From positions 1 to 27,226 of IMG/VR virus record IMGVR_UViG_3300006789_000124: a DNA stretch of 27,226 nt, one strand, 5' to 3'. This DNA comes from a virus (taxonomy: Duplodnaviria; Caudoviricetes). Positions 1-27,028 of the stretch are shown here, piece after piece; within the stretch, counting starts at the first letter, position 1; each line of letters begins with the position of its first letter. The position numbers and the translations under genes were made by a program. The notes below the pieces were generated by a model. The model saw only the letters and a program-made list of their open reading frames with translations. It had not been told where the DNA came from and made no database searches.

Positions 1-33
1 CGCCTCAGCGCCCTGGAAGAGGACATCGGGATC
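1..33. repeat. Direct repeat copy A (encodes DPDVLFQGAEA on - strand)
   Basis: cgcctcagcgccctggaagaggacatcgggatc matches 3811-3843 at 30/33 positions. Confidence 0.9.
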
Positions 34-3000
34 TTTTGCTCTTGTACGTTGTAGAGATTGTAGAGCGAGATCACTTTCTGTTTGATACGCCTTCCCGAGA
101 TCATATCTATCGCCGGAGGGAACGTGCCATGTAGCACGGGGTTTAACTCCCAGCTCTCCGGGCGTCACAACGCCGGATCGTCTGAGGTCTGGCAGGATAG
201 TCGGGTAGTCTTTAGAAAGATCTACAAGACCCCGTAGCATCTCGGGATCGAGGTCCCTGGCACGGCTTATATTACCTCGCCCGAAAATATGCACTGGAAT
301 CGGAGTGTCTGGCTGAAGCTCTGCCAAGGTCATCATCCGGCCACGACCCTCGTGGCCCACAACCCGCAACCCGTTGCTGTCTTCTTTCACCATCAAAAAG
401 GGCGGGGCAATGGCTTCTCCCGCCTCGATACGCCTTGTGACCTCTGAGATAGTTCTCTTTCCTGACACGGCTTCTGCTGGCCGCGCTGGATTAAGGGACA
501 GGAACTCTTTAGGGGTCATCCAAGCAACAAAGCCTTTGTAAGCTACGTTCATGTTGAGCGGAACCTGGCCTAAGCCCTCCTTAGAGTCAAAAACGACTCG
601 GCCTGCCGTCATTCGTCCCTCGTAAGAGGCGGCATCTGTTGGAACAACGAACGCCGGAGCAGCCTCTTCTGAAGGCAGCTTGATCCCCAGCCGGGACGCT
701 ATGATACGTTTAGTAGACTCTTGACCTGCTCTGGGCTCGATTCCTTCAACTTCTTCTGCACGTTGAGCAGCTCCTGGGGCGTCACCTCTTCGGGGGGCAA
801 CCTTTCCAGTTTCATCCGCATCCCGTCCAGGTACGCGATCAAGTCCTCGATCCGCTCCTCGTCTGGGATCTGGTACTCTCGCATAGTCTGAAGGTTCCAG
901 ACCCTTTGCAAGATTTGCTGTACTGTCGGATTCATACGCTTTCCTTTGGGCTCTATACAAGTCCCAGTGCTTCTCGAAGACCTTCTCCACAGCTCTTTCT
1001 ACTTCGTAATAGGCGTCGAGGTCTGAAAGAAGCTTCAGAAGCTGCATCTCGCCCGTTGAGAAGCTCTCTCCGTGACCAGACACTGGAAAGTGAACAAGCT
1101 CATGCTGCAAGACAAACATATACTGGCGGGCCGCTGCGCGAGGGTTCTTTGGAGCTATTAGAGAGTTTAGAGGATTTACAAAGAAGCCGTGAAAGGGAGT
1201 ACGGATATGTACCCCCGCGTACTCCTTATCGATAGAAATACCGGTAGGAACATCCGCGATGTCCTTATACCGATCGTACACCCAGTACTCGTCCGATCCC
1301 TTCGCCGCTATCTGCGTCAGTCGCTTCACCTCGTCATTCAAAGAACCTAACGAAGAGTAGAAGTCCGTAATATCTGCTTCTGAGAATCGAAGCGTCTTAG
1401 GTTCTGATAGCTTTAGAAGAGAGGTTGCTAAAGACTCTGCCTTTAGGACATCTCCAAACTCGATCGTTAAAACTTGGTCGGCAAGAGCAGCAATCCCCGG
1501 ACTCGCAACATCAGCCAACTCGCCTCGAAGATAATCTAAAAGAACTCGATATTCTTGAATAGCATAGTCATAGTCGTAGAATCTTTCTTCTGTGAACTTG
1601 TCTGCCGGAGAGGTGTATTTGCCGACAATCCTTTCTTCTTTTCTCCTGGAAAGAAAACTAAGAAGATCGTCTATGTTGTAGCCAAGGATCTGTTCGTGGT
1701 CTTTGTAAGAGCGAGATTCTAAAAGGGAGGGGCGACCTTCGCTGCTCTTAAGCCAATCATCGTGGTCTTTAAGCCTTAGCCCGAGTCCCTCCTCTACTTT
1801 GTGAGAGTGATAGACGCGATCCATCAACCCGTTACGCAGATGTATAAAGGCTACTCGCTCCCCCGGCGACATCCGGGTAAAAGCCTCTCCTACAAGCTCG
1901 TAGACATCAGACATCTGGGCCTGCGTAGCCGTTACTTGGGCGGTCGCTTTGTTAAACCTCGATGCGCCGAAGACATCCGCCCCTTCTGAGCTTTTATCAT
2001 GCCACAACAAAGCAGCCCGAGATTCCCCTCCTCCCCCGCTGGCGGGGTATAGAGTGTTTTCTAAAGAACGGATAAGGTCTCTGGCTTCTTTGTTTGGTAC
2101 GAGATCCAGCCCTTCTAAAGGATCTTCAGACACCTTTAGCGCTGTAATACCGAAGTAGTTTACATTCGTGTTGTTGTGGAAAAGCGCGACTCCCTTTGGA
2201 ACCTCAATCTTTGTCGGAGCAGCAACGTCTCCACCAGCCCCGACTCTAAAACTATCGGAAATCTCGTTGATGTTCTCGGAAGTAAGGGTCTTCCCTTTAC
2301 CAGCCTCAAGTTTCCCCTCCCAGATTTTTAGAAGACGCGCTCGCTCCGAGTCCTTTACCTTCGGCGGAGTGAGCTTTGGTCCTATTAAAGGACCGTCGAT
2401 GTCCTCCAGGCGATCAAGCAAACGCTGCCGAAGAGGCATCGGGCGAAAGGAGGAGAAGGTCTCTCCTATCTCAACGGCTTCTTGAGCCGCGTACCAGCGC
2501 CGAATATGAAACTTAAGCGCGTCCAGGTCTTTCTTGATGTTCTTGTTAAAACCCTCTCTTTGTTTATTGAACGGATACGCTCGGTGAGAAGGGTCTACGG
2601 TCGGCTTCCAATCAATGAAAATGTCATAAGGAATGGTCTTATCAGAGAAGGACTGGATGTCTTGATTAAACTGAAACAATCCCGCCGAAAGGTTTTGATG
2701 CCTGGCAAAATGAGCCTTCTCATGCTTCTTCTTAGAAATCCAGACCTGGGCGGAGCCCCAGGAAAACTCAGCCTCTACAAAGTCCTCGTACTCACCCAAG
2801 CGGTCAAAGCTCCTGCCTAATAGAGGGGTTTTGTTAGGCGGAAGAATGTATGTCCAGTCCTCGTTGCCTCTCGTCTTAGAAGCCCCTCCCTGAAGAAAAT
2901 GTACCTCTACAGAAGCATCGTGGATTAGAGCATTACGTGACAGGGTGTTGGGGACCGGAAGACTTCTTAAATCCTCCTGAGAAGAAACAGTCTTATAAGG

Positions 3001-6000
3001 ATACGAGATCTTCCTTGTCTCGTCTAACTGAGCGTCGTAGTACTCCTCGGGTATACGAATACGAACCTCTGTTCCGTGCTCTAACTTAAGAGCCCCGGCT
3101 TCGTGCTTGTTCCAAAAATCAAGCTCTTCTTTAGGGGTTTGATTAAGAGAGCCTTTCCAACGATTATCTTCCTGGAGTCGCTTCATAGCGTCGTATCGAT
3201 CGGGAATCATCTTAAGAGCATTGCCCTTGGCGTCCTTCTTAACGACAGCTACCTCAGCAGCAAAGCTATCTGCCTTGGTCGTGCTCACGGGAAACTTGGT
3301 TCCAGAGACTATGCTGTCCTGCATCTGCTTAGCACTAACTTCTGCAGTAGTAAGAACACCGTCTCGAATAGTTCTCAAGGAGATCGATTCCGCGCCCAAG
3401 AGAAACCCGAGTTTCGCGATACCAAAGCCGCCCGAGCGCATCTCTATGGGGATGTCTTTCTTGGTTCCCGCCACAGTAAAGAACGCATCCTGAACAATAT
3501 CAGGAGACATGCCGATACCGTTATCAATAAGGGCGATCTCACGAAGAGTCGGGTCATAGCGAACGATAATCCGACCCGCTCCCTTCTCTAGAACACCCTT
3601 AAACTCGGCCTCTTTAATCGCATCAAAAGAGTTCTGAATTAATTCCTTTACTGTAACTTCGGACAAAGACCGCGAGTACATCTGAGAACCCAGAAGCTCC
3701 ACCAACCGGGCCTTGTTGACCTCGATGCCCATCTCGCCACCCGCCTGGGCGACAATCTTCTCGGCAAGCTCCTCATCTGCGCCCGAGTAAAGAACCGTAG
3801 GCGCTTTCGCCGCGTCAGCGCCCTGGAAGAGTACGTCGGGATCAGCAAACGGAGACTTAATCTGAGTAGCCTCAAAGACAATGAAATTATCGGAAATCCC
3901 CTCCCCGTCTTTAATGTTCTTGATATGGATTCCGTCAAAGTTGCCTTCTGCTATCTCTATTCCTCGAAGGATTTCATGATCCAACTCACGAGACCAGTGC
4001 CTCCCCTTAGCATCAAATACGAAAGGTCTTTCTATCCTTAGGTGTGCCGGGATAACCGAGCCCCAGTCCTCGATGAGTTTAGACCACTTGCTGCCCTTTG
4101 CCTGCCCTGTAAGCAGATCATCGAGGAGGTCAGACAACTCTATCTCTTCCGCTTTAGCAGCCCCGACCTCTTTAACAAGCGCCTTGTGCTCTTTCGTAGA
4201 AACCAACCGCGTCTGAACAGCATACGCAGAAGCACGCTCTGGAGAGGGTGTGAAAAAGAGACCTCGAATCGTGGTCTCCCCGTGAGCACTTCCTAAAGCA
4301 GACAAAGAAAAATCCTTAAACACCGCTGATGTTCCGTGGTAAACAACCAGCGGCTTACCCTTCTCGTCAACGACCTTAGAATCACCAAACCAACGCTTAA
4401 ATTCGGGGGTGTCTGTTATTTCCTCCGCTCTCTGTAGCAAGACATCTGGTTCCTCAGCCTTCTCTGGAGCCTTCTCCTTCGGCGGTCTTTTCTTGAGCTT
4501 GAAGGTGGGTTTTCCATCCACTATCTGGATCTTACCCTTCACGATCTTAATATCGTGCTTCAGCCACCAGGCCTTTGGGTCTTGCCCGTAGGTGTTACCG
4601 TGGTTGATGGCATAATCGTCCAGCATCCGAGCAATCTTCTCGGCCTTCTTTGCGCTGTACCCTGCGTCGATCGCTTGATCCATAAACTCGATCGCCTCGA
4701 AGGACATCGGGTTTCTAGGATCCAGCTCAGGTACGTCTCGGAAACCCCTGACCTTGATAGGCTTTACACGCTTACCCAGCTTGCCTTCCACGAAGTAGTG
4801 CATCTGAGCAGCCGCTATGGCACGGGCCTCGTTGTTAATCCAGACAGCCGCCTTAGCTCGCTCAATGACCTCCAGAAGCTCCTCTTTGGAAAGAGCCTTG
4901 TCCATTGTCTTGCTAAGCTCTGCAACCATCTTCTCGATGGCAGGGATAAAGGAGTCCCTCTTCTTCTGCCGGGCCTTGCCCGCTTTCAGGGCCTGCTTTT
5001 CGAGGTCTGAGAGCTTGGGCTTCTTGGGCGCTTTAACCTTGGGCTTAGGTGCCGCTGCCCGACGAGCCCTCTCTTCCTGGATTGCTCGGATATTGAACTT
5101 ATGAAAGTCCTCAAGCTCCTCCCCGCGAGCAATCCGCTTACGATAAAAGCCCAGAGCTTCTGATAGGGCTTCGTCGGACTCCTTAGCTGCCTTCGCAAGA
5201 AGCGTCGGACCTCCCTGAGCCCAGGCGGCCTCATCTACCGTGACCTTAATAGGCTCTTCGACGGGCTCTTTTACTGGCTCAGGAGCCTTGGGAGCTACGG
5301 GCTCGTCGGGAAGCCTCTTGAGCGTAGTGACTTCGTTTTCCAGGAAGCGCATAAGGGACTGCTGAAGAGCAGCCGGGTCATCGGGATGAGCTTTGATCGC
5401 AGCGAGCGCTTTCTCTTTTGCAGCGGCAACCTCTTCTTCTGTCGCTCCCTTCTTCGCTACTCGCTTAGAGAAGCTCTCCGCCAAGTCATCTGCGATTTTA
5501 TCCACGGCATCTGACGCGGGATCGATCTCTCCTCGCTTGATTTTCTGAGCGAAATCTTCCAGGTCCTGAGCATGCCTCGGATGATTGAAAAGCTCATCGT
5601 ACCGGGTTGCAACTGTGCCGGCCTGCTCCCCCATCAGGACACCGGCTTTACGGTTTCCTGTGCTGAGATTCAGCCCTCGGGGGACCTTCGCGGCGAGGTC
5701 CATGTCCACGATATCGGGGTGCTGCTTGGACAGGCGCTTCGCAATCAGCTGCTCCTGGATGTCCAGCATGTCTGCAACATCCCCTTGACCAGGGAACTGC
5801 GACCGGAGGCGGCTTTCTGCCTCAGCAAATTCCTCGGTTCTATTGAGACGAGACTCTGCAATGATCCGAAAGTCTTTAGAGGCTTTCTTGAGGTCGGCCC
5901 TGCGAGGTGTCTCCAAGCCCTTCTTGACAACCCTCCCTAGACTGCCAACCGCGACAGTAATCATGTCGGGAGTAAGGATCCAGCCGGCAGTACCGCCTAA

Positions 6001-7758
6001 ATACCACGCAAGCTGATCAAACGTGTCCATATTAGGGGACGAGCCGATGACATCCAGTCCTACCTGCTGTGTATTATCCCGCTGGGCCATTCCCCTCTTC
6101 CAAGCAGTGGAAAAGTTATCCCAGGAAGTAGACGGATCCCTGGGATCAAAAAGCTCAGACCAACCTGCGCCCAGACTTCCCTCTCTAACAACCCCAGCAA
6201 CGCCGCTGTGCGCGATATCCACTATCTCGAAGCCGCCCATCCACCCGTCAACAGCTCTTAGAAGAACCTCGCCGTCTGTGTCGAAGCCAACGACCTCGAT
6301 TCTCTGCTCTAAGGCGTCTCCGAAGAGCAAATCTCCTTGATATCCCTTGAGCTGTCGATCTGAGATACTACGATTCCCGCTCCAGTTACCGGTCACATAG
6401 AGGGCTCCTACGTCGCGAAGAGCCCTCTCCCGGAAATACTGAATCTTCTCCTCGTGGTTAGGTGCTCCTGCTTCCAGCTTAAACTGTCTCGCGTAGATTT
6501 GCGTCATGGCATCTACGAAGTTGTCCGTAGAAGCATGGCTTAGGAGACCACTGTACTCCTCCCAAACCTGCCTCTTCTGCTGACCGATATCGCTCTTGTC
6601 TAACAAGATAGAGGCGGCGATCATCTGGGCGTCAGTGAACTTCGCGTCTCCAGGGACAACATTCAAGCCCATGGCCAGGCTATCGTCCTTCTCCGTGAAC
6701 TTAAACGAGGGATCGTCCAGCTCCATCATCGTGTTGATGTCACCGGCTCTGATGTACTTGTCCTGCGCCTCGATGCGAGCCACGCCTTCTCGGACAGCGT
6801 TGACACGGTCTACAAGCTCGGGTCCCACCCCTTGGAGAACAGCGCCCCCACGAATGGTCTCTAAATGAAGAACGGCGGCAGGGTTCTGGTTATCTACCCG
6901 GATCTTTTGTTCAAGATGCTCCAGGTTAATGCCCGCAGCCGTGAGGGTATCCTTGAATGTCTGCGCGGACGGGGGCGCTTCTAATCCGAGGCTCTTGACA
7001 TGCTTCTGAATGATCTGGTCTGTCGTATCTGCGGAGGAGCTAGTTCCCAGCTTGAAGACAAAACTCCGTACATCAAGCTCCTCAAGAGCCGCCTGTCGAT
7101 CTGCAGAAGCAGCCATGAGCATTGTCGCGGCCTTGGCTCGCGAGGGCTTCGCGTACTTCTTCGCATAGATCCCTTTAAGCTTCTCATAAGCCTCTTTCTT
7201 GGCATCTTCGAGCGGCAAACCGTCCCACATCCGAACAAAGACAACTGCCGCGTGATCATCCGCGAGTTCTTCCCAGCTACCCGGAAGCTCGTGCTCCCAC
7301 GCCTTTGCCGCTACCTCTTTCTCCTGAAGCTGAATCTTCTCCAAGAGCTGATTTAGCTGCCTCTCTTCTTCCCCCAGCCGAGTCTGGTCTGCGGATAGCT
7401 GCTCCTGGAGAGTGGTAAGGGCGGTCTCTCTTTCGAGCAGCGCCTCCCTCGTCTTAAGAGCCCGATCATATTCTTCGCCCGGAGAGAACCCGTCGGGGTT
7501 CTCTTCAAGCAACGCCTGCAACCCCCGAGCGTCGGCATCGAGCGCTTGTGCCTGCTGATTAAAGGCCTCTATTCGCGGGTTAAAAGCAGTTGCGTCTGTT
7601 TCAAAGACCTGAGCACGAGTGTTGTAGTCCTCGATCAAAGTGTCGAGGTCCATCGGTGGCGCTTCTGGCAGCTCCACAGCCTCCGGTACATCCTCTTCAG
7701 CACGCTCTGCGCGGGGAACTGCGGAGACCGCTGTAGAAGCTTTTGGAGCAGGAGGCAC
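1..7758 (-). CDS. Giant polyvalent / internal virion (ejection) protein, >2586 aa, 3' end outside window; contains ART, GHKL ATPase, HExxH peptidase and ParB-like domains
   Basis: GTG at 7758-7756 preceded by AAGGAG and the upstream gene's TAA. Manual translation (MPPAPKASTAVSAVPRAERAEEDVPE...DPDVLFQGAEA) stays open to base 1. It is absent from the ORF track because there is no stop in the window. It is the last gene of the virion operon, after other large probable ejection proteins. Confidence 0.9.
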   Translation of the reverse strand, partial: MPPAPKASTAVSAVPRAERAEEDVPEAVELPEAPPMDLDTLIEDYNTRAQVFETDATAFNPRIEAFNQQAQALDADARGLQALLEENPDGFSPGEEYDRALKTREALLERETALTTLQEQLSADQTRLGEEERQLNQLLEKIQLQEKEVAAKAWEHELPGSWEELADDHAAVVFVRMWDGLPLEDAKKEAYEKLKGIYAKKYAKPSRAKAATMLMAASADRQAALEELDVRSFVFKLGTSSSADTTDQIIQKHVKSLGLEAPPSAQTFKDTLTAAGINLEHLEQKIRVDNQNPAAVLHLETIRGGAVLQGVGPELVDRVNAVREGVARIEAQDKYIRAGDINTMMELDDPSFKFTEKDDSLAMGLNVVPGDAKFTDAQMIAASILLDKSDIGQQKRQVWEEYSGLLSHASTDNFVDAMTQIYARQFKLEAGAPNHEEKIQYFRERALRDVGALYVTGNWSGNRSISDRQLKGYQGDLLFGDALEQRIEVVGFDTDGEVLLRAVDGWMGGFEIVDIAHSGVAGVVREGSLGAGWSELFDPRDPSTSWDNFSTAWKRGMAQRDNTQQVGLDVIGSSPNMDTFDQLAWYLGGTAGWILTPDMITVAVGSLGRVVKKGLETPRRADLKKASKDFRIIAESRLNRTEEFAEAESRLRSQFPGQGDVADMLDIQEQLIAKRLSKQHPDIVDMDLAAKVPRGLNLSTGNRKAGVLMGEQAGTVATRYDELFNHPRHAQDLEDFAQKIKRGEIDPASDAVDKIADDLAESFSKRVAKKGATEEEVAAAKEKALAAIKAHPDDPAALQQSLMRFLENEVTTLKRLPDEPVAPKAPEPVKEPVEEPIKVTVDEAAWAQGGPTLLAKAAKESDEALSEALGFYRKRIARGEELEDFHKFNIRAIQEERARRAAAPKPKVKAPKKPKLSDLEKQALKAGKARQKKRDSFIPAIEKMVAELSKTMDKALSKEELLEVIERAKAAVWINNEARAIAAAQMHYFVEGKLGKRVKPIKVRGFRDVPELDPRNPMSFEAIEFMDQAIDAGYSAKKAEKIARMLDDYAINHGNTYGQDPKAWWLKHDIKIVKGKIQIVDGKPTFKLKKRPPKEKAPEKAEEPDVLLQRAEEITDTPEFKRWFGDSKVVDEKGKPLVVYHGTSAVFKDFSLSALGSAHGETTIRGLFFTPSPERASAYAVQTRLVSTKEHKALVKEVGAAKAEEIELSDLLDDLLTGQAKGSKWSKLIEDWGSVIPAHLRIERPFVFDAKGRHWSRELDHEILRGIEIAEGNFDGIHIKNIKDGEGISDNFIVFEATQIKSPFADPDVLFQGADAAKAPTVLYSGADEELAEKIVAQAGGEMGIEVNKARLVELLGSQMYSRSLSEVTVKELIQNSFDAIKEAEFKGVLEKGAGRIIVRYDPTLREIALIDNGIGMSPDIVQDAFFTVAGTKKDIPIEMRSGGFGIAKLGFLLGAESISLRTIRDGVLTTAEVSAKQMQDSIVSGTKFPVSTTKADSFAAEVAVVKKDAKGNALKMIPDRYDAMKRLQEDNRWKGSLNQTPKEELDFWNKHEAGALKLEHGTEVRIRIPEEYYDAQLDETRKISYPYKTVSSQEDLRSLPVPNTLSRNALIHDASVEVHFLQGGASKTRGNEDWTYILPPNKTPLLGRSFDRLGEYEDFVEAEFSWGSAQVWISKKKHEKAHFARHQNLSAGLFQFNQDIQSFSDKTIPYDIFIDWKPTVDPSHRAYPFNKQREGFNKNIKKDLDALKFHIRRWYAAQEAVEIGETFSSFRPMPLRQRLLDRLEDIDGPLIGPKLTPPKVKDSERARLLKIWEGKLEAGKGKTLTSENINEISDSFRVGAGGDVAAPTKIEVPKGVALFHNNTNVNYFGITALKVSEDPLEGLDLVPNKEARDLIRSLENTLYPASGGGGESRAALLWHDKSSEGADVFGASRFNKATAQVTATQAQMSDVYELVGEAFTRMSPGERVAFIHLRNGLMDRVYHSHKVEEGLGLRLKDHDDWLKSSEGRPSLLESRSYKDHEQILGYNIDDLLSFLSRRKEERIVGKYTSPADKFTEERFYDYDYAIQEYRVLLDYLRGELADVASPGIAALADQVLTIEFGDVLKAESLATSLLKLSEPKTLRFSEADITDFYSSLGSLNDEVKRLTQIAAKGSDEYWVYDRYKDIADVPTGISIDKEYAGVHIRTPFHGFFVNPLNSLIAPKNPRAAARQYMFVLQHELVHFPVSGHGESFSTGEMQLLKLLSDLDAYYEVERAVEKVFEKHWDLYRAQRKAYESDSTANLAKGLEPSDYARVPDPRRGADRGLDRVPGRDADETGKVAPRRGDAPGAAQRAEEVEGIEPRAGQESTKRIIASRLGIKLPSEEAAPAFVVPTDAASYEGRMTAGRVVFDSKEGLGQVPLNMNVAYKGFVAWMTPKEFLSLNPARPAEAVSGKRTISEVTRRIEAGEAIAPPFLMVKEDSNGLRVVGHEGRGRMMTLAELQPDTPIPVHIFGRGNISRARDLDPEMLRGLVDLSKDYPTILPDLRRSGVVTPGELGVKPRATWHVPSGDRYDLGKAYQTESDLALQSLQRTRAKDPDVLFQGAEA
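250..610 (-). other. ParB/sulfiredoxin-like domain within the giant ORF
   Basis: FVAWMTPKEFLSL...IEAGEAIAPPFLMV...RVVGHEGRGRMMTL...IPVHIF. GHEGRGR (337-357) corresponds to the ParB/Srx GxxR nucleotide-binding motif. Confidence 0.6.
699..935 (-). CDS. Small helical protein overprinted (nested, alternative frame) inside the giant ORF
   Basis: ATG at 935-933 with AAGGAAAG just upstream. The 78-aa product is L/E/Q/K-rich and amphipathic, while the host frame here degenerates into an R/G/D/P linker. Confidence 0.55.
   Translation of the reverse strand: MNPTVQQILQRVWNLQTMREYQIPDEERIEDLIAYLDGMRMKLERLPPEEVTPQELLNVQKKLKESSPEQVKSLLNVS
960..1260 (-). other. Zincin-like metallopeptidase motif (HExxH...H) within the giant ORF
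   Basis: ...GVHIRTPFHGFFVNP...YMFVLQHELVHFPVSGHGESF (1060-1104). HExxH plus a third His and a following Phe is the pattern seen in WLM/SprT-like zincins. Confidence 0.7.
2480..3740 (-). other. GHKL (Hsp90/MORC/MutL-like) ATPase domain plus middle domain within the giant ORF
   Basis: N-box KELIQNSFDA (3619-3648), G1 DNGIGMS (3505-3525), G2 SGGFGIAK (3412-3435), GTEVRI (3058-3075). Downstream PFNKQRE (2554-2574) resembles the Hsp90 middle-domain LNxSRE arginine loop. Confidence 0.88.
3811..3843. repeat. Direct repeat copy B (encodes DPDVLFQGADA on - strand)
   Basis: cgcgtcagcgccctggaagagtacgtcgggatc lies exactly at the ART/GHKL boundary. Confidence 0.9.
3850..4410 (-). other. ADP-ribosyltransferase domain (ART-PolyVal-like) within the giant ORF
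   Basis: TPEFKRWFGDSKVVDEKGKPLVVYHGT...GLFFTPSPERASAYA...VIPAHLRIERPF...FDGIHIKN...NFIVFEATQIKS matches the signature of ART domains in phage/plasmid polyvalent proteins. The His of YHGT is at 4336-4338. Confidence 0.85.
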
Positions 7759-21938: not shown

Positions 21939-23030
21939 TTATGTGTCGAGATTGACGCACACACCCTGTGCGACAAGCTTGGTACAGATGAGGTTGCCCT
22001 GCATCGAGAAAAGAGCCGTCACGACATCCTGGTCACCCACTCGCTCCTTGAACTCGGAAATCTGGGGAGCCTCGTGCATCGGGAACTCCAGATAGTCAGT
22101 GTTCAGGAAGTAAGCAATGCCGTTGTCGGCAAGACCGGAAGTGTGAGTGCCCGAGGAGCCGCTGGAGAACTGCGAAAGCTCCAGGTCGAGAGAACTGTAC
22201 ACCTTTCCAAGTCCCAGCTCCAGGCCCAGAGTATTGCTGCCCTTCTTGTCTTCGGGATCTTGGATGACATCGATGCGAACATTCGACCGTCGAGCATCCT
22301 CGAAACGACCGTAAGTGGCATCATCCATCATGACCAGGTCAGGACCCTTGCCAGGACCACCAGCGTAGTGAGCACACTCGCGATAAGTCTTGCGAAGAAC
22401 CTTCATACCATCGTCAGACCAAGTAGAAGCAGCATTGTACTGGTTGTAGTGGAAGTAAGAAGAACTCTTCGTAACTCCCTGAACGCTCTGTGCTTCTGTG
22501 GTCTGGTTGGCGACGGTGTCCATGTCAATAAGACCGTGGGTCACGCCGCTTCCGATACCGTCCGACTTCTCGCCGTTAAGAGTCATAAGACCCTTCAGCT
22601 CGGCAGTCTGGAAAACGATACCGCGACTCACACCAGTGAGCAGGTACTTGTTCAGATCGGCCTTCACGCCCTCCATCACCATCTGAGGATACTCCTCGAT
22701 GAGACGAATGACAGCAAGCTTGCCGCTGTTGAACAGAAGCTCCTTCTTGGGGATGTTGATCGCAACAACAAGACGATGAGGTTCCACTTGGAACTTCTTC
22801 ACCTGCTGACGGCGAGTCATATTAAGAAGTTCGTCACCGACGTACACACCAACACCGCGAGCAGGAGCGCCACCAGAGAAGGAACGCTCGATATAAGAGC
22901 CCCCTTCCATGGGCATCCGTGCCTTGTCGTTAAGTGCGTCGAACAGCTCGTTACTTCGAACAAAAGAATTTACGAGGGGGCCGCGAAGGTCCGCAAACGT
23001 AGTATTCAATACTTCGGTAGAGATGGACAT
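21939..23030 (-). CDS. Major capsid protein (HK97 fold)
   Basis: 363 aa with strong codon bias. Sequence pattern NSFVRSNELFDAL...EGGSYI, PDLVMMD, YFLNTDYL, GNLIC...QGV is characteristic of a widespread phage MCP family. Confidence 0.85.
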   Translation of the reverse strand: MSISTEVLNTTFADLRGPLVNSFVRSNELFDALNDKARMPMEGGSYIERSFSGGAPARGVGVYVGDELLNMTRRQQVKKFQVEPHRLVVAINIPKKELLFNSGKLAVIRLIEEYPQMVMEGVKADLNKYLLTGVSRGIVFQTAELKGLMTLNGEKSDGIGSGVTHGLIDMDTVANQTTEAQSVQGVTKSSSYFHYNQYNAASTWSDDGMKVLRKTYRECAHYAGGPGKGPDLVMMDDATYGRFEDARRSNVRIDVIQDPEDKKGSNTLGLELGLGKVYSSLDLELSQFSSGSSGTHTSGLADNGIAYFLNTDYLEFPMHEAPQISEFKERVGDQDVVTALFSMQGNLICTKLVAQGVCVNLDT

Positions 23031-23219
23031 ATTCGTATCCTATTAGAGTACGCAGAAAGGCTGGTTGCAGATGTGCCTTCTGCAAAAAAGTAAGCGGTCT
23101 TGAGCCTATCTGCGCTCGTCTTATGCTCGGACTCTTTTGAGCTACCCGAAAACAACGAAGATGCTGAGTTGACCTTTACACAGATAAGACAGTCAATGCA
23201 ACAAATACGGTGGATTTAG

Positions 23220-23396
23220 CTAATATTTTTTGCCCGGATTGTTCTCTGCCCCGAAAGTGGTAGCCATAACAGAGCCTTTCATCAAGCTCCTTTTATACCG
23301 GCGCATGCTCTTAGCGGTCTTATATTTAGGAGCCTTCGGCAGCTTCGGCCCTTTGGGCAGTTTTAGCTTCACGTACTCCTGCTCAAGAGTCTTCAT
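23220..23396 (-). CDS. Small basic Lys/Pro-rich protein, 58 aa (below ORF-track cutoff)
   Basis: MKTLEQEYVKLKLPKGPKLPKAPKYKTAKSMRRYKRSLMKGSVMATTFGAENNPGKKY*, just downstream of a candidate promoter. The RBS is weak. Confidence 0.5.
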   Translation of the reverse strand: MKTLEQEYVKLKLPKGPKLPKAPKYKTAKSMRRYKRSLMKGSVMATTFGAENNPGKKY

Positions 23397-23432
23397 CTGG
23401 GTCTACCGCTCGCTGAAGAGGTGTTGGATGTT

Positions 23433-23460
23433 ATTATATCGCAACTAAGCCATCAAGCAA
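23433..23460 (-). promoter_or_regulatory. Candidate sigma70-type promoter for the leftward virion operon
   Basis: - strand TTGCTT (23460-23455), 16-nt spacer, perfect TATAAT (23438-23433). Confidence 0.5.
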
Positions 23461-23470
23461 GGAAGGCGAA

Positions 23471-25117
23471 ATGACGAAGAAGCGCCCTGCTCTTCTACCT
23501 AAAGGAGCTGAACTCGCTACAGCCCCTGGTCTAAACCAGAGCAAAATCCATGCGCTTTTCTCTACGCCCGAGGCCTTTGTCTCGATGTGCCAGATCGTCC
23601 GAGAGGACGAGTCCACTGGTTACCTGGAACCCACCTCGACCCAGAGGAAGCTGCTCAAAGCAGTGCATGACCATCGCTGGGTTCTCGTAAACAAGTTTCG
23701 TCAGGCGAAGATCACAACCATCTCCGTCATGCTCCTCTTGCGAGACTGCATGTACCTGAGCGGCGTCAAAGGCCTCCTCATCGCAGAGCGCCAGGACACC
23801 GCCGAGGACATCTTTGAAAGAATCCTCTTCGCTTACAACAGACTCCCGCCCGACGTGAAAATGCCGTTCGCGCCCGGAAGGAAGGCGGGCGCAACACAGA
23901 TGCACTTCATCCACGGCGGGGGCATCAAGGTCCTGACCGCAGGAGGACGCTCGCCCGCCATCGGTCGCTCCATCGACCGCCTCATCATCACGGAGTTTGG
24001 TGAAGCAATGTGGCAGCGCAAGGCAGCCATCAACATCTTCCCGACGGTCAATAAACGTCCAAACGCCAGAGTTATCCTAGAGTCTACCCCCGGACGGGCG
24101 GGCTCTCATCACGAGCATATGTGGCAGTCAGCGCTGGAGGGAAAGAGCCGCTTCCATCCCCTGTTCTTAGACTGGTGGCGCGATGAGAGCTGTGTAATAA
24201 AAGCCCCTGACTTCACGGCCACGGAAGTAGAGAAAGAGTACCTGGCCCGACATCCGGGCATGAACTTCGCCAACTTGGCCTTCCGTCGCTCTGCTCTCAA
24301 CACAGAGTTCGTCGGCGACTCTCGCCTCTTTGGGGCGAAGTATCCTTCCGATCCCTATGATGGCTGGCTTGGCTCCCTCGCCCCCATCATGCCCATCGAT
24401 GTTCTCAAGCCAGCGCTGGCAAGAGCGCTTCCAGACCCGCCCCTTTCGAGCATGGGCTGCTGCATCATCGAGGCTCCAGAGCCCCACAAGAAGTACCTCG
24501 TCACAGCTGACCCCGCAGGGTACGGTGCCGGAGGAGATAAGAGCGCCCTTACCGTGTGGGATGCTGTCGATCGCAAAGAGGTAGCGTTCTGGGAAGACCG
24601 GGAAGACCCCGGACGTTTTGCCCAGCGCCTTAAAAATATACAAGCCCGCTACAACAACGCGCTCCTCGCTGTCGAGTCCAACGCCACGGCCTGTATCGCT
24701 GTGCTTAAAGACCAGGGAAACAAGAACCTGCTCTGGACAAGCCGTACTCATCCCGGTTGGTACGCTACGAACAAGCGCCTACAAGAAGCGGAAGCTCGCT
24801 TGGTTCAGCTTCTTCGCCAAGAAGATATCTTGATCCGCTCACGAGGGCTCTTGCACCAACTCGTAAACTACGACGGGAGCAGAAAGAAGCGCGTCAAAGG
24901 CCTCGACGGCATCGTCCATCACTTCGATAGAGCCAGAACAGCTGTAATGGCGGCGGATATTCTTTCCCGCAGACATTTCACAAAAGCTAATATCGAAGAG
25001 AACGAATACGAGCGTGTTCCAGGGCAGCTGAGTATATCAGATCTCGATAGACACAATAATAGAATCAAGCGAGAATCGCGAAACCTCTTCAAACCCCCAC
25101 CTCGGGACTGGTTGTAA
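23471..25117 (+). CDS. terL: Terminase large subunit
   Basis: Walker A-like VNKFRQAKITT, Walker B-like LIITEFG, coupling motif ILESTP, RNase H-fold nuclease motifs TADPAG...DKSA and AVESN. AAGGAAGG RBS. Confidence 0.92.
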   Translation: MTKKRPALLPKGAELATAPGLNQSKIHALFSTPEAFVSMCQIVREDESTGYLEPTSTQRKLLKAVHDHRWVLVNKFRQAKITTISVMLLLRDCMYLSGVKGLLIAERQDTAEDIFERILFAYNRLPPDVKMPFAPGRKAGATQMHFIHGGGIKVLTAGGRSPAIGRSIDRLIITEFGEAMWQRKAAINIFPTVNKRPNARVILESTPGRAGSHHEHMWQSALEGKSRFHPLFLDWWRDESCVIKAPDFTATEVEKEYLARHPGMNFANLAFRRSALNTEFVGDSRLFGAKYPSDPYDGWLGSLAPIMPIDVLKPALARALPDPPLSSMGCCIIEAPEPHKKYLVTADPAGYGAGGDKSALTVWDAVDRKEVAFWEDREDPGRFAQRLKNIQARYNNALLAVESNATACIAVLKDQGNKNLLWTSRTHPGWYATNKRLQEAEARLVQLLRQEDILIRSRGLLHQLVNYDGSRKKRVKGLDGIVHHFDRARTAVMAADILSRRHFTKANIEENEYERVPGQLSISDLDRHNNRIKRESRNLFKPPPRDWL

Positions 25118-25118
25118 T

Positions 25119-25310
25119 ATGGCTGGCTTCTATACCCCTCCAGGACTGACCCCCGAAGAAATCCTCCTGCGCCTTCGGCAGAAAGCAGGAGAGTCCCCAG
25201 AAACGAAGTCCTTTGGACTCTTCGCAAGAAAAGAAGAAGAGCCGAGCGAAAAGGAAGAAGAGGAAGTAGCAAAGAAGCTTCAAGATGCAAAGCCTGAGGA
25301 GACCGCCTGA
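25119..25310 (+). CDS. Small charged hypothetical protein, 63 aa
   Basis: Fills the terL-portal gap exactly; its stop overlaps the portal start (TGATG). Confidence 0.7.
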   Translation: MAGFYTPPGLTPEEILLRLRQKAGESPETKSFGLFARKEEEPSEKEEEEVAKKLQDAKPEETA

Positions 25311-27028
25311 TGACTAAGCTCTCAGTGCTCATAGACCGCCACAGAAAGTTCTATGAAGAGAACGAGAAGACCGTCTTTGATAAAGCCCGTCGATACTACA
25401 GAGGAGAGTTCTTCTCCAACCGCGCATCAGAGCTTCAGAAGGCTACAAACCTCAATCTCTGCAGCAAGAACCTGATATACGCCATCGCGGACACCGCTAT
25501 TAGCGCCCTGCTGGGTCCGAACCCGCAGGTCTCCGCAAATCCCCGGAACAGGCCCAGCCAGGACGCCACACCGGGCATCAACGGGCTCCTACAGTACGTT
25601 TTTTCCTCAAATAACATGCGAAGAAGGGCTGCTACGGCCCTTATTGACGCTGTTCTGTGTAAACGGGGAATCTTCAAAACAGGCTGGGATAGTAAGGAAG
25701 ATCGCCCCGTTATCCGCGTTTGTGACCCCTCAACGGTGTTTTTTGACCTAACTGTCCGCGATGTGGACGATATCAAGTACTGGATCGAGGCAACTGTCCT
25801 CCCTCTACACGAGTTTAAGCGTCGAGTAGACACGGGCTTGTACGATGTGGAGATGTCAGACGTTAAATCTGACCGATATCCAAAATGGATGCTCGGGGAC
25901 AAGCAACATCAGACAACGAACTCGATTCGAGACTCCTTCCAGTGGATTACGGTCTACGAATACTACGATCGCGAGACGAACAAGGTAAAACACTACGTCA
26001 GACAGCTCGATAAGGTAGTTTTCGAGGACGATATCGACTATATCCCCTATTCGATGTTCAGTCTGAACCAATCAGGCTCCGATTGCCTGGGATTGAGCGA
26101 AGTTCAGCTGGTTTTGGCCCAGCAAGAGACGGTCAACGACCTCTTGACCCACCTAAAGCGCATTACCTACCTTATGATCCCCCGAATCCTCTACGATGCC
26201 GGGAGAATCAGCGAAGAAGACCTGAATAAGGCGGTAGAAGCGTCCGCTGGGTCCTTTGTGGGGGTAGCCCCGCAGAATTCGGAGGCCATGAGGGCACTAA
26301 ACACGCTGTTTTACAACATGCCCATGCCCGAAAATCCCGTCGGCGTGCAGAACTTCCTCACGCAGCAGGAAAATGACGCCGCTTTCATCTCTGCGCTGGC
26401 CGAAGCCGCCCGAGGCCAGGTGGTTGGAGCCCGAACCGCGACGGAAATGGCCATTATCGATGCTCAGATGCGGACCCGGCTGGCCACTCGGGAGGGTCAC
26501 GTCAACACAGCCCTCGAAGATGTGGCTGAGAAGGCCTTTTACCTGTGCAGAAAGTACATGAAGTCGGAGAAAATGATTCGCGTGGCCGGTAGTAGGCGCT
26601 GGGACACCATTACTCTGGGCGATATTCAGGATGTAGAGGTTGATTTCGAGATGGTTAGCTACAACCCCATCCGACAGAACCCCTCCGTGCAGGTTGAAAC
26701 GATGATGCAGCTAATCCCGCTGCTCATGCAGGACCAGAACATCGATTCTCGGAAGGTAATCGAGGAGGTTATTCGTAGCCTCGGTCTCTCAGCGGGCCTA
26801 TTGATGCCAGAGGAAGAGGTCGAAGCGGCTGCTCAAGCTCAAGCACAGATGCAACAGCAGATGGCGCTGGGTGGAGCAGCGGCTCCTGCAGAAGGAGGCG
26901 CCCCCCCGGCGGGTGGAGAGCCAGATATCGCGGAAATCTTAGCCATGCTGGAAGCCACTGGAGCAGAGCCTACGCCTGAAGAGAGCATGGCAGCGGGTGG
27001 CGGAGCGCCGGTACGCGAGGAAGCCTGA
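25310..27028 (+). CDS. Portal protein
   Basis: 572 aa after terL, with GIFKTGW, RG...RTATE motif and a Q/A/E-rich C-terminal tail as in P22/T7-like portals. Confidence 0.88.
   Translation: MTKLSVLIDRHRKFYEENEKTVFDKARRYYRGEFFSNRASELQKATNLNLCSKNLIYAIADTAISALLGPNPQVSANPRNRPSQDATPGINGLLQYVFSSNNMRRRAATALIDAVLCKRGIFKTGWDSKEDRPVIRVCDPSTVFFDLTVRDVDDIKYWIEATVLPLHEFKRRVDTGLYDVEMSDVKSDRYPKWMLGDKQHQTTNSIRDSFQWITVYEYYDRETNKVKHYVRQLDKVVFEDDIDYIPYSMFSLNQSGSDCLGLSEVQLVLAQQETVNDLLTHLKRITYLMIPRILYDAGRISEEDLNKAVEASAGSFVGVAPQNSEAMRALNTLFYNMPMPENPVGVQNFLTQQENDAAFISALAEAARGQVVGARTATEMAIIDAQMRTRLATREGHVNTALEDVAEKAFYLCRKYMKSEKMIRVAGSRRWDTITLGDIQDVEVDFEMVSYNPIRQNPSVQVETMMQLIPLLMQDQNIDSRKVIEEVIRSLGLSAGLLMPEEEVEAAAQAQAQMQQQMALGGAAAPAEGGAPPAGGEPDIAEILAMLEATGAEPTPEESMAAGGGAPVREEA

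Follow-up and report, generated by a model that had tools for sequence, protein, structure and literature searches.

The window, a stretch of 27,226 nucleotides that represents a partial genome, contains the 5′ part of a gene for a giant polyvalent protein of an uncultured marine phage (positions 1 to 7758, minus strand). This ORF of 2,586 amino acids (aa) is open at the contig end. A full-length counterpart from the same cluster, P0003, has 4,900 aa and is 99.2% identical across the part present in the window. Upstream of the giant gene we found matches to terminase, portal, major head and tail proteins, the virion module of a terminase-portal phage, and the gene comes after the capsid and tail genes and those for proteins of 188, 1,294 and 814 aa. 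Its product is polyvalent both in being encoded within such a module and in combining unrelated domains, since the P0003 chain holds two ART-PolyVal, one GHKL and two HExxH domains. Judged by gene position alone, it would be an internal virion or ejection protein, packaged and ejected with the DNA. A PDB sequence search with P0003 returned matches to HtpG/HSP90 only. Locus searches using the N-terminal core and the GHKL region gave no relatives; a word-index search with the N-terminal region found the window's own cluster only, and with the peptidase region no match. None of the eight capsid-protein relatives examined extends to the giant gene.

Several cargo cassettes can be recognized on the minus strand. 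The first-pass annotation had named ART, GHKL and ParB-like domains, and Pfam bears out the first two. ART-PolyVal cassette 1 (3850 to 4425) matches PF18760 with 52.1 bits against a cut-off of 31.2 (aa 1131 to 1181), and a mobile cassette carries a GHKL (HSP90-like) ATPase domain (3316 to 3726) that matches PF13589 (HATPase_c_3, aa 1366 to 1481). The third segment (67 to 645) has no Pfam match; we take it to be ParB-like from a motif it carries. It is 46% identical to a segment of P0014, and its N-terminal joint lacks the motif described below. The GHKL cassette is also present in L024, P0009 and P0034, where, as in the window, it travels with a second HExxH domain (892 to 1245; HELVH at 1090 to 1104). 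In L024 it is bordered, as judged by eye, by that protein's own dialect of the motif. Two further cassettes of P0003, aa 2588 to 2807 and 3146 to 3480, have no Pfam or PHROG match at threshold.

The three linker peptides noted in the first pass at domain boundaries are present, all in a single minus-strand frame. Copy 1, EPDVLLQ (4432 to 4452, within EPDVLLQRA at 4426 to 4452), marks the start of the cargo array. Copy 2, DPDVLFQGADA (3811 to 3843), is the glutamine dialect of a C-terminal tail found family-wide on ART-PolyVal domains, and copy 3, DPDVLFQGAEA (1 to 33), lies within a 39-nucleotide direct repeat (1 to 39). A serine-type variant, VLYSG (3781 to 3795, minus strand), opens the GHKL cassette. 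Chance does not account for the three copies: composition predicts PDVL[FL]Q 0.00025 times per protein, copies 2 and 3 have a 9-mer in common, and no repeated 9-mer of any kind appeared in 2,000 shuffles. P0003 has five copies (aa 1104, 1307, 2582, 2802 and 3140), those at 2802 and 3140 being additional to the window's three. All five lie in a 2,429-residue insertion and border cargo blocks; the pattern turned up at most once in 5,000 shuffles. When a motif profile was trained on other proteins, it picked out these five copies plus one site outside the insert, with a training site apparently mis-picked in 2/31 cases (L045 and L106) that are kept in the counts.

The association with domain boundaries held up in a scan of homologues, in which the motif occurs family-wide and in several dialects. 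Copies 2 and 3 enclose a block of 1,275 aa with the GHKL, second HExxH and ParB-like domains, in which no internal glutamine motif occurs, and an 866-aa multidomain block of P0014 has no internal copy. P0003 has lost the glutamine at its last joint, before the C-terminal half of the peptidase-like domain; at the equivalent P0014 joint it is retained. By the strict definition, the motif occurs 1.83 times per 1,000 aa within inserts and 1.43 times outside them, and a Pfam flank test with ART excluded gave a weak signal, 6 versus 3 hits.

A peptidase-like domain interrupted by cargo

Just before the cargo array, at 4519 to 4698 (minus strand), a profile match identifies the N-terminal half of a split HExxH metallopeptidase-like domain, of a type we label clade A. 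A profile of 58 homologous N-terminal halves, P0003 excluded, matches aa 1024 to 1076 of P0003 (E 3.1e-8 for one sequence). The C-terminal half (HELSH, aa 3512 of P0003) falls beyond the contig end. In insert-free homologues the two halves are contiguous. Across 32 clusters, the gap from the N-terminal half to HExxH is 32 to 34 aa in 3, 108 to 1,667 in 28, and 2,429 in P0003.

The clade A domain has an intact HExxH and a conserved downstream glutamate, the motif of zincin-like metallopeptidases. H29, E30, H33 and E77 are invariant across 35 aligned rows, HExxH is retained in 147/150 relatives, and the peptidase half is matched by 2,707 cluster representatives at E up to 0.001. A structure model of the insert-free homologue L115 has helices of high confidence and strands of low confidence (about 59); in a second model the strands were unresolved and the motif loop had a pLDDT under 50. 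Foldseek found no match to the peptidase model. The best hit of a VIA fold search (Z 6.5) was an unrelated chain, with neprilysin at rank 42 (Z 4.0, rmsd 3.7, 75 aligned). The fold searches returned no clear zincin, a result that does not argue for a different fold. With the peptidase profile as query, the PDB sequences yielded no hit below E 0.035.

The motif precedes the C-terminal peptidase half in 51/66 proteins with an insert versus 5/13 without (p 0.008). The motif thus tracks cargo and not the fold.

Motif dialects and their possible reader

The dialect of the motif goes with the peptidase clade. A clade A domain lies at the same locus for 10/13 glutamine tails versus 0/43 other tails (Fisher 8e-9, with clusters not fully independent). 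When proteins were picked by their peptidase, 32/34 ART tails had the glutamine; 7 of these 34 also belong to the 13-versus-43 comparison. Cultured phages that infect different hosts show the same pairing of dialect and clade A domain. Tails also match the upstream linker of their own protein, scoring 11.27 versus 6.88 ± 0.48 (z 9.1; 0/100,000 permutations), with a tail anchor apparently mis-picked in 3/56 rows (L003, L008 and L016) that are kept in the counts. Eight controls for this match gave z of at most 1.9. Similarity of the ART body does not predict dialect (rho −0.02), and in other peptidase clades neither does peptidase similarity (rho 0.017). On an ART tree, the glutamine label changes 12 times versus 11.8 when shuffled, on a poorly resolved topology with 2/53 branches starred, so that the label shows no clustering there, a result of little weight. 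Copies within clade A proteins share 57/126 synonymous codons versus 66 expected. Copies thus resemble one another within a protein, yet synonymous sharing shows no excess across the family, from which we conclude that selection acts at the peptide level.

The boundary association, together with an in-cis peptidase candidate whose clade tracks the glutamine dialect, makes the first-pass suggestion, a processing signal for a phage peptidase in cis, the best reading. On these sequence comparisons, we consider it about an even call that the motif at the joints of swappable cargo is a self-processing signal for the in-cis HExxH peptidase. The clade link would equally follow from co-inheritance with any other part of the core. 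The motif could be a signal that is never cut, serving to dock, unfold or pass on a beads-on-a-string chain as it is packaged or ejected. Its reader would be the peptidase-like domain or some other part of the core, and the chain would stay whole. Such a signal accounts equally well for the dialects, the clade link and selection at the protein level, and it suits the loose residue after the glutamine. It leaves unexplained why HExxH and the downstream glutamate are so uniformly kept, and large motif-free blocks would still need to pass. We regard it as unlikely.

The first-pass annotation had likened the motif to the picornaviral 3C site and placed the cut between Q and G. The likeness to 3C is not supported, and the cut position is not established by it. 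In picornaviruses, a chymotrypsin-fold cysteine protease with a GxCG motif acts within a polyprotein, and its site has a small residue, mostly glycine, fixed after the glutamine. The phage motif shares four to six letters with this site, and the polyprotein logic is alike; Carin1 gp32 even carries a literal EVLFQG. The phage side differs in having no cysteine protease, a free residue after the glutamine and a metallopeptidase as the candidate enzyme. P0003 contains no cysteine, and neither GxCG nor GDSG occurs in the 12 other ORFs of the window. In the 34 clade A tails the glutamine hardly changes, unlike the residues around it, and the next residue is G in 7, E in 5, N in 4, P in 4 and R in 3. 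Glycine follows in 4/5 P0003 copies. The exact octapeptide pattern had 12 matches across IMG/VR, in ORFs of 120 to 337 aa, 11 of them from one unrelated family and none giant. A true 3C-type Q/G site for a chymotrypsin-fold cysteine protease is therefore highly improbable, despite the literal resemblance of VLFQG.

Another enzyme might cut the motif. Candidates are a protease of the host, a head-maturation protease whose gene lies outside the contig, and the HExxH domain of the GHKL cassette. For the head-protease codes of T4 gp21 and SPN3US gp245, release of ejected proteins by way of a short motif has been proposed or demonstrated. The motif here may likewise be tied to release. Capsid proteins are also marked in those systems, whereas in the window no PDVLFQ-like copy occurs in the capsid, portal, terminase or 9 other ORFs; two loose matches occur, one LFQ (814-aa protein) and one VFQ (capsid protein). 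In other phages, head proteases cleave ejection proteins at short motifs, according to the text available (PMC10052503), and a partial genome that includes a second HExxH domain leaves room for such an enzyme. Among the 13 ORFs of the window we found no protease family match, prohead protease included, and no scaffold gene was identified among the window ORFs. The HELVH domain was rejected as the motif reader and is read as cargo, being found with a different dialect in L024. The persistence of the dialect with clade A across phages of different hosts also speaks against an outside enzyme, and we consider one quite improbable.

The motif as a DNA repeat

Copies 3 and 4 share an exact direct repeat of 39 nucleotides, 660 nucleotides apart, and the contig breaks there. 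Records of the 39-mer have depths of 37 and 27 with flanks of 9 to 28, and one 681-nucleotide contig has the repeat at each of its ends. Copies 2 and 3 are identical at 30/33 nucleotides. The 39-nucleotide repeat and this near identity indicate that the likeness of copies within the window comes from recent duplication. One low-depth contig skips 32 to 664 in frame and is thus missing the ParB-like cassette as far as the motif, which is weak evidence. One related contig (run X4) diverges just upstream of VLYSG, leaving a loose end at 3795. As far as the nucleotide comparisons go, the motif is also a DNA repeat, apparently one at which cassettes are exchanged, a side of it that the first-pass annotation had overlooked.

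These observations raise the alternative that the motif is a recombination scar and hot spot combined with the natural last strand of ART-PolyVal, so that a cassette inserts by duplicating a short junction and nothing reads the peptide. The exact repeat around a 660-nucleotide cassette and the contig without the ParB-like cassette fit this, as does the stand-alone ART of phage JA13, which ends at the tail position. So does codon sharing: copies 2 and 3 have 8/10 synonymous codons in common (P 0.005), and 16 selected ART pairs share 41/78 versus 30.7 expected. Against it, copies 1 and 2 share only 1/5 codons, clade A lacks the family-wide synonymous excess, the glutamine is almost invariant amid variable neighbours, and the motif is rarer where cargo is absent. 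We think a scar without a reader rather unlikely.

Known giant proteins and the proposed mechanism

Autoprocessing of polyvalent proteins by an embedded metallopeptidase was already proposed by Iyer et al. in 2017 (PMC5512222). The proteins treated in the text available there are alike in placing unrelated effectors, ART-PolyVal among them, in one chain beside virion genes; an embedded HExxH peptidase is proposed to release domains, and the analogy to viral polyproteins is explicit (PMC5512222). Unlike our description, that text names no recognition motif, dialects or insertion of cargo into a peptidase, and the word "linker" occurs 0 times in its main text, although the FTP alignments may show the motif (PMC5512222). 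The titles and abstract openings covered by our literature search, with most subscription papers outside it, mention neither the motif nor this layout, and we found no report of cleavage of any clade A protein.

Two known proteins bear on cutting from opposite sides. The same paper cites P1 DdrB as processed, which counts against a signal that is never cut, and N4 vRNAP as packaged unprocessed (PMC5512222). According to the available text of a further study, N4 vRNAP is ejected as a single chain of loosely linked domains, as a non-cleaved signal would have it; the recombinant protein showed no degradation and the C1-C2 density was contiguous (PMC13434306). N4 gp50 (vRNAP) is alike in its order of N-terminal core, cargo, HExxH domain and helical C-terminal core (PMC13434306). 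It is unlike in that its HExxH domain is not clade A (2.5 bits), no N-terminal half was detected before the cargo, and it is reported uncut. A similar TLFHS occurs at 2385 to 2389, and we infer that it is homologous to the motif.

Four cultured podophages are closer. BPP-1 Bbp10, Carin1 gp32 (Cobetia), JessA gp39 (Caulobacter) and the Tenjo protein (Xanthomonas) are giant proteins at the gp16 position with both clade A halves, cargo between them and glutamine-type motifs at the joints; they differ in their shorter inserts, about 190 to 910 aa. Their records are annotated as lysis, crystallin-motif or hypothetical proteins, and the literature available describes no processing of them.

The cargo blocks sit in an insertion between the two halves of the peptidase-like domain, with the motif marking the joints. 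If the motif is a self-processing signal, the halves would assemble into one fold around the loop of cargo, either ahead of passage through the tail channel or after it, and the peptidase would recognize hydrophobic-hydrophobic-x-Gln, although the bond cut need not be Q/G. Cutting is predicted to free ART, the GHKL block and further effectors, and the two terminal cores might remain connected via the split domain. In P0003, cleavage directly after each glutamine would yield pieces of 122.8, 22.6, 142.1, 24.5, 37.7 and 194.9 kDa. Duplication or recombination at the motif might bring in new cassettes, which would thereby inherit the site. The self-processing reading is weakened by the intact N4 vRNAP, the motif-free joints, the 39-nucleotide repeat and the fold searches, which did not confirm a zincin.

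A broader picture, which we offer tentatively and with the balance somewhat against it, is that of a self-excising cargo loop in a widespread podophage clade. Exchangeable effectors, up to about 3,000 residues, would occupy a surface loop of the peptidase. This enzyme, folded from halves thousands of residues apart, would cut at a clade-specific hydrophobic-hydrophobic-x-Gln code to free the effectors and would keep the ejection scaffold in one piece, and the same sequence would be the DNA target for new cassettes.

The 2017 autoprocessing proposal can now be tested directly, with the enzyme domain, sites, fragment sizes and cultured phages named, JessA and Carin1 among them, whose hosts are harmless. 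If the chain stays uncut, the conserved code would still indicate a further reader in ejection. If self-processing is true, it would provide a new sequence-specific protease and a rule for locating cassette borders in unannotated giant proteins, and it would explain how a single podophage gene can supply many enzymes directed against the host.

The giant gene and its motif copies

The window is a piece of a tailed-phage genome and encodes a terminase, a P22/SU10-like portal, a major head protein and tail proteins; its sequence is found on contigs from marine metagenomes. Terminase and portal (21939-27028) are plus-strand genes and read in the other direction from the capsid/tail operon. Among the window genes we recognized neither a scaffold nor a head protease. 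Relatives of the capsid protein exist at 73-78% identity. The giant gene is the last one (1..7758, minus strand) and is open at the contig end. Three PDVL(F/L)Q-type peptides were correctly located in it by the first-pass annotation: EPDVLLQRA (copy 1, 4426-4452), DPDVLFQGADA (copy 2, 3811-3843) and DPDVLFQGAEA (copy 3, 1-33). Composition alone predicts 0.00025 occurrences of PDVL[FL]Q. Copies 2 and 3 have a 9-mer in common, and a repeated 9-mer arose in 0 of 2,000 shuffles. Pfam supports both the ART-PolyVal and the GHKL domain calls of that annotation; its ParB-like domain has no Pfam match, and "ParB-like" is kept here as an assumed name for the cassette.

A cluster look-up gave a full-length relative of the giant protein, P0003, which has 4,900 aa and is 99.2% identical to the part in the window. 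It contains five motif copies, at aa 1104, 1307, 2582, 2802 and 3140, and none in aa 1-1100 and 3500-4900. Copy 4 stands before a second ART domain and copy 5 is the end of that domain. In 5,000 shuffles, a pattern spanning all five turned up no more than once. The motif is a real feature. We had predicted that the core peptidase would be encoded past the contig end, and P0003 has it there, with HELSH at aa 3512. P0003 aa 3146-3480, outside the window, is a cassette 63% identical to one in another relative, P0014, and has no Pfam or PHROG match; by eye it includes what we take to be a helix-hairpin-helix-like stretch resembling DNA glycosylases. The linker after the ParB-like cassette (window 150-178) has two alleles, the window's and that of P0003, and loose ends at 178 in sequencing runs X3, X4 and X6 show the second.

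Cargo inside a split, predicted peptidase

Homologues that lack an insert have a helical N-half, with the strands and the HExxH helix coming directly after it. We call this domain a peptidase because of its HExxH, kept in 147 of 150 relatives, its invariant downstream Glu and Iyer 2017 (PMC5512222), which in the sections consulted defines the polyvalent protein class, suggests that embedded MPTases process their own chains and likens these proteins to polyproteins. Fold searches with the peptidase returned no clear zincin. In a model of the insert-free protein L115 (mean pLDDT 82.4), the motif forms a short strand right before the next strand, with pLDDT of only ~59 there; a second model was uninformative. 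An iterated profile detected the N-half in 63 of 76 proteins. When built without P0003, the profile matched P0003 aa 1024-1076 (E 3.1e-8), which places the N-half at window 4519-4698. Within it, 4594-4623 holds a cluster of 5-8 substitutions relative to several runs. Of 32 clusters, 3 have a gap of 32-34 aa between N-half and HExxH and 28 one of 108-1,667; in P0003 it is 2,429, and this insert holds all five motif copies. Of 79 phmmer hits, 13 lack an insert, and gaps in the set reach 3,162. The cultured phages JessA, BPP-1, Carin1 and Tenjo have the same layout, which is new.

The first-pass annotation had proposed that the motif marks domain boundaries, and scanning the homologues bore out the association, with some joints lacking a copy. 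A copy stands before the C-half in 29 of 32 clusters (16% of random windows) and in 98 of 144 phmmer hits; for proteins that carry an insert the figure is 51 of 66, for those that do not it is 5 of 13 (p 0.008). The flanks of Pfam ART domains contain 10.2 strict motifs per 1,000 aa, versus 0.5 inside the domains; around 25 other Pfam domains the values are 3.3 and 1.1, from just 6 and 3 hits. BLAST-defined module ends without ART bore it at 14 of 48, against 5.8 ± 2.2 expected (2/2,000), several of the 14 being the site before the C-half. Inserts contained 25 profile hits (shuffled mean 7.1). Motif density per 1,000 aa was 1.39 in inserts versus 0.83 outside (profile hits, cluster proteins) and 1.83 versus 1.43 (phmmer hits), the outside profile hits being partly further cargo sites downstream of the peptidase. 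Joints within the 1,275-aa GHKL block of the window protein and an 866-aa block of P0014 have no motif, and the last joint of P0003 lacks the Q that P0014 retains there.

Junction dialects and the peptidase clade

We collected 80 IMG/VR loci with the ART domain as query. Short hydrophobic-x-[S/Q/A] motifs precede this domain, and it ends in P-D-I-x-x-[S/Q/A]; copy 2 is that tail, and the stand-alone ART of phage JA13 terminates at the tail position. We merged 81 proteins into 56 clusters and compared the six residues after the tail Ile with the upstream linker. Tails scored 11.27 against their own linker and 6.88 ± 0.48 against those of other proteins (0/100,000 permutations), and the own linker ranked top in 11 of 56 clusters. 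For the controls (five 6-mers and three regions) z did not exceed 1.9; the tail/linker match had 9.1. Each protein therefore has its own dialect of the motif. Two adjacent or nearby ART-bearing genes share a junction dialect in loci L001, L008, L020, L023, L026 and L062. An unrelated phage protein family of ~200-340 aa also has the octapeptide DPDVLFQG (L081-L092; 11/12 matches). At the end of gp59 of phage F116 (L093, 4029-10418), the beginning of a methyltransferase gives way to an atypical Arg-rich tail, suggesting a frameshift in the record.

We label as clade A the HExxH domain type xDxSTxxHExxH. It is present in the locus for 10 of 13 glutamine-tail clusters versus 0 of 43 others; the three that lack it are L033, L061 and L077, which is 5'-truncated. 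In a set picked by peptidase (32 cluster representatives and 150 phmmer hits), 32 of 34 detected ART tails have Q, with 7 of the 34 shared with the locus set. The likeness to the picornaviral 3C site seen by the first-pass annotation did not hold: P0003 has no Cys, GxCG is absent from the 12 other ORFs, and the residue after Q varies (G in 7/34 tails, P in 4/34), which makes the chance of a 3C-type site next to negligible. Similarity of the ART body does not predict dialect (rho -0.02). Peptidase similarity does across all 41 clusters (rho 0.155, 2/5,000 permutations), an effect that disappears when only the 31 non-A clusters are compared (rho 0.017). The second HExxH domain of the window moves with the GHKL cassette and in L024 sits with another dialect, so we read it as cargo. 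The link of dialect to peptidase clade is new.

Clade A proteins such as L114, L121, L134, L154 and L170 have an extra conserved TLFQ-like copy ~150-170 residues before the N-half end and further ones after the C-half; P0003 lacks these. HExxH is lost or altered in a few clade A relatives (P0022, P0026, P0109, L112, L125).

Origin of the copies and possible cutting

Between copies 2 and 3, 30 of 33 nt are identical, as are 8 of 10 synonymous codons (P 0.005). Copies 3 and 4 form an exact 39-nt repeat on either side of a 660-nt cassette: 39-nt records are collapsed, a 681-nt contig has the repeat at each end, and a loose end runs on into the sequence before copy 4. Because of this repeat, the contig ends at window 1-39. 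A first-stage window whose end falls in this kind of motif may mark an assembly break at a cassette joint. A contig of depth 2.2 lacks 633 nt, in frame, as far as the motif, but this is weak evidence: one record, at relaxed likeness, with 31 letters on its short side. In this phage, the motif copies are recent duplicates. Such duplication is compatible with a scar that has no reader, which we consider unlikely. Copies 1 and 2 have 1 of 5 codons in common; family-wide, 47 within-protein pairs share 57 of 126 codons versus 66 expected, and 16 selected ART pairs show a modest excess, 41 of 78 versus 30.7. We conclude from the sequences that cassettes enter at the motif through DNA events and that selection on the peptide retains it.

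On this comparative evidence, the most likely reading, at about an even chance, is that the motif is recognized in cis by the clade A domain, which would cut the cargo blocks free. The giant protein would be packaged, the two peptidase halves would refold around the cargo loop, and the clade A domain would recognize the motif and then cut. Since zincins commonly cleave on the N-terminal side of a hydrophobic residue, the cut bond may lie inside the motif. Cutting by another protease seems quite improbable. The strongest counter-case to in-cis cutting is N4 vRNAP, described as unprocessed (consulted sections of PMC5512222) and, when recombinant, as undegraded (consulted sections of PMC13434306), but its HExxH domain is from another clade. 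That the motif is a signal that is not cleaved is possible, though rather unlikely.

Our literature search found no description of the motif, and the consulted sections of Iyer 2017 (PMC5512222) name no cleavage site for MPTase autoprocessing. We found no giant-protein processing data in those of the reports on phi24B gp47 (10.64898/2026.04.10.717836), Xacm4-11 gp35 (10.64898/2026.02.16.706137), OANV1 gp16 (10.1101/2021.05.28.446129) and BPP-1 (PMC3863775). With the split-peptidase layout and the dialect-clade link, the older processing idea becomes directly testable.
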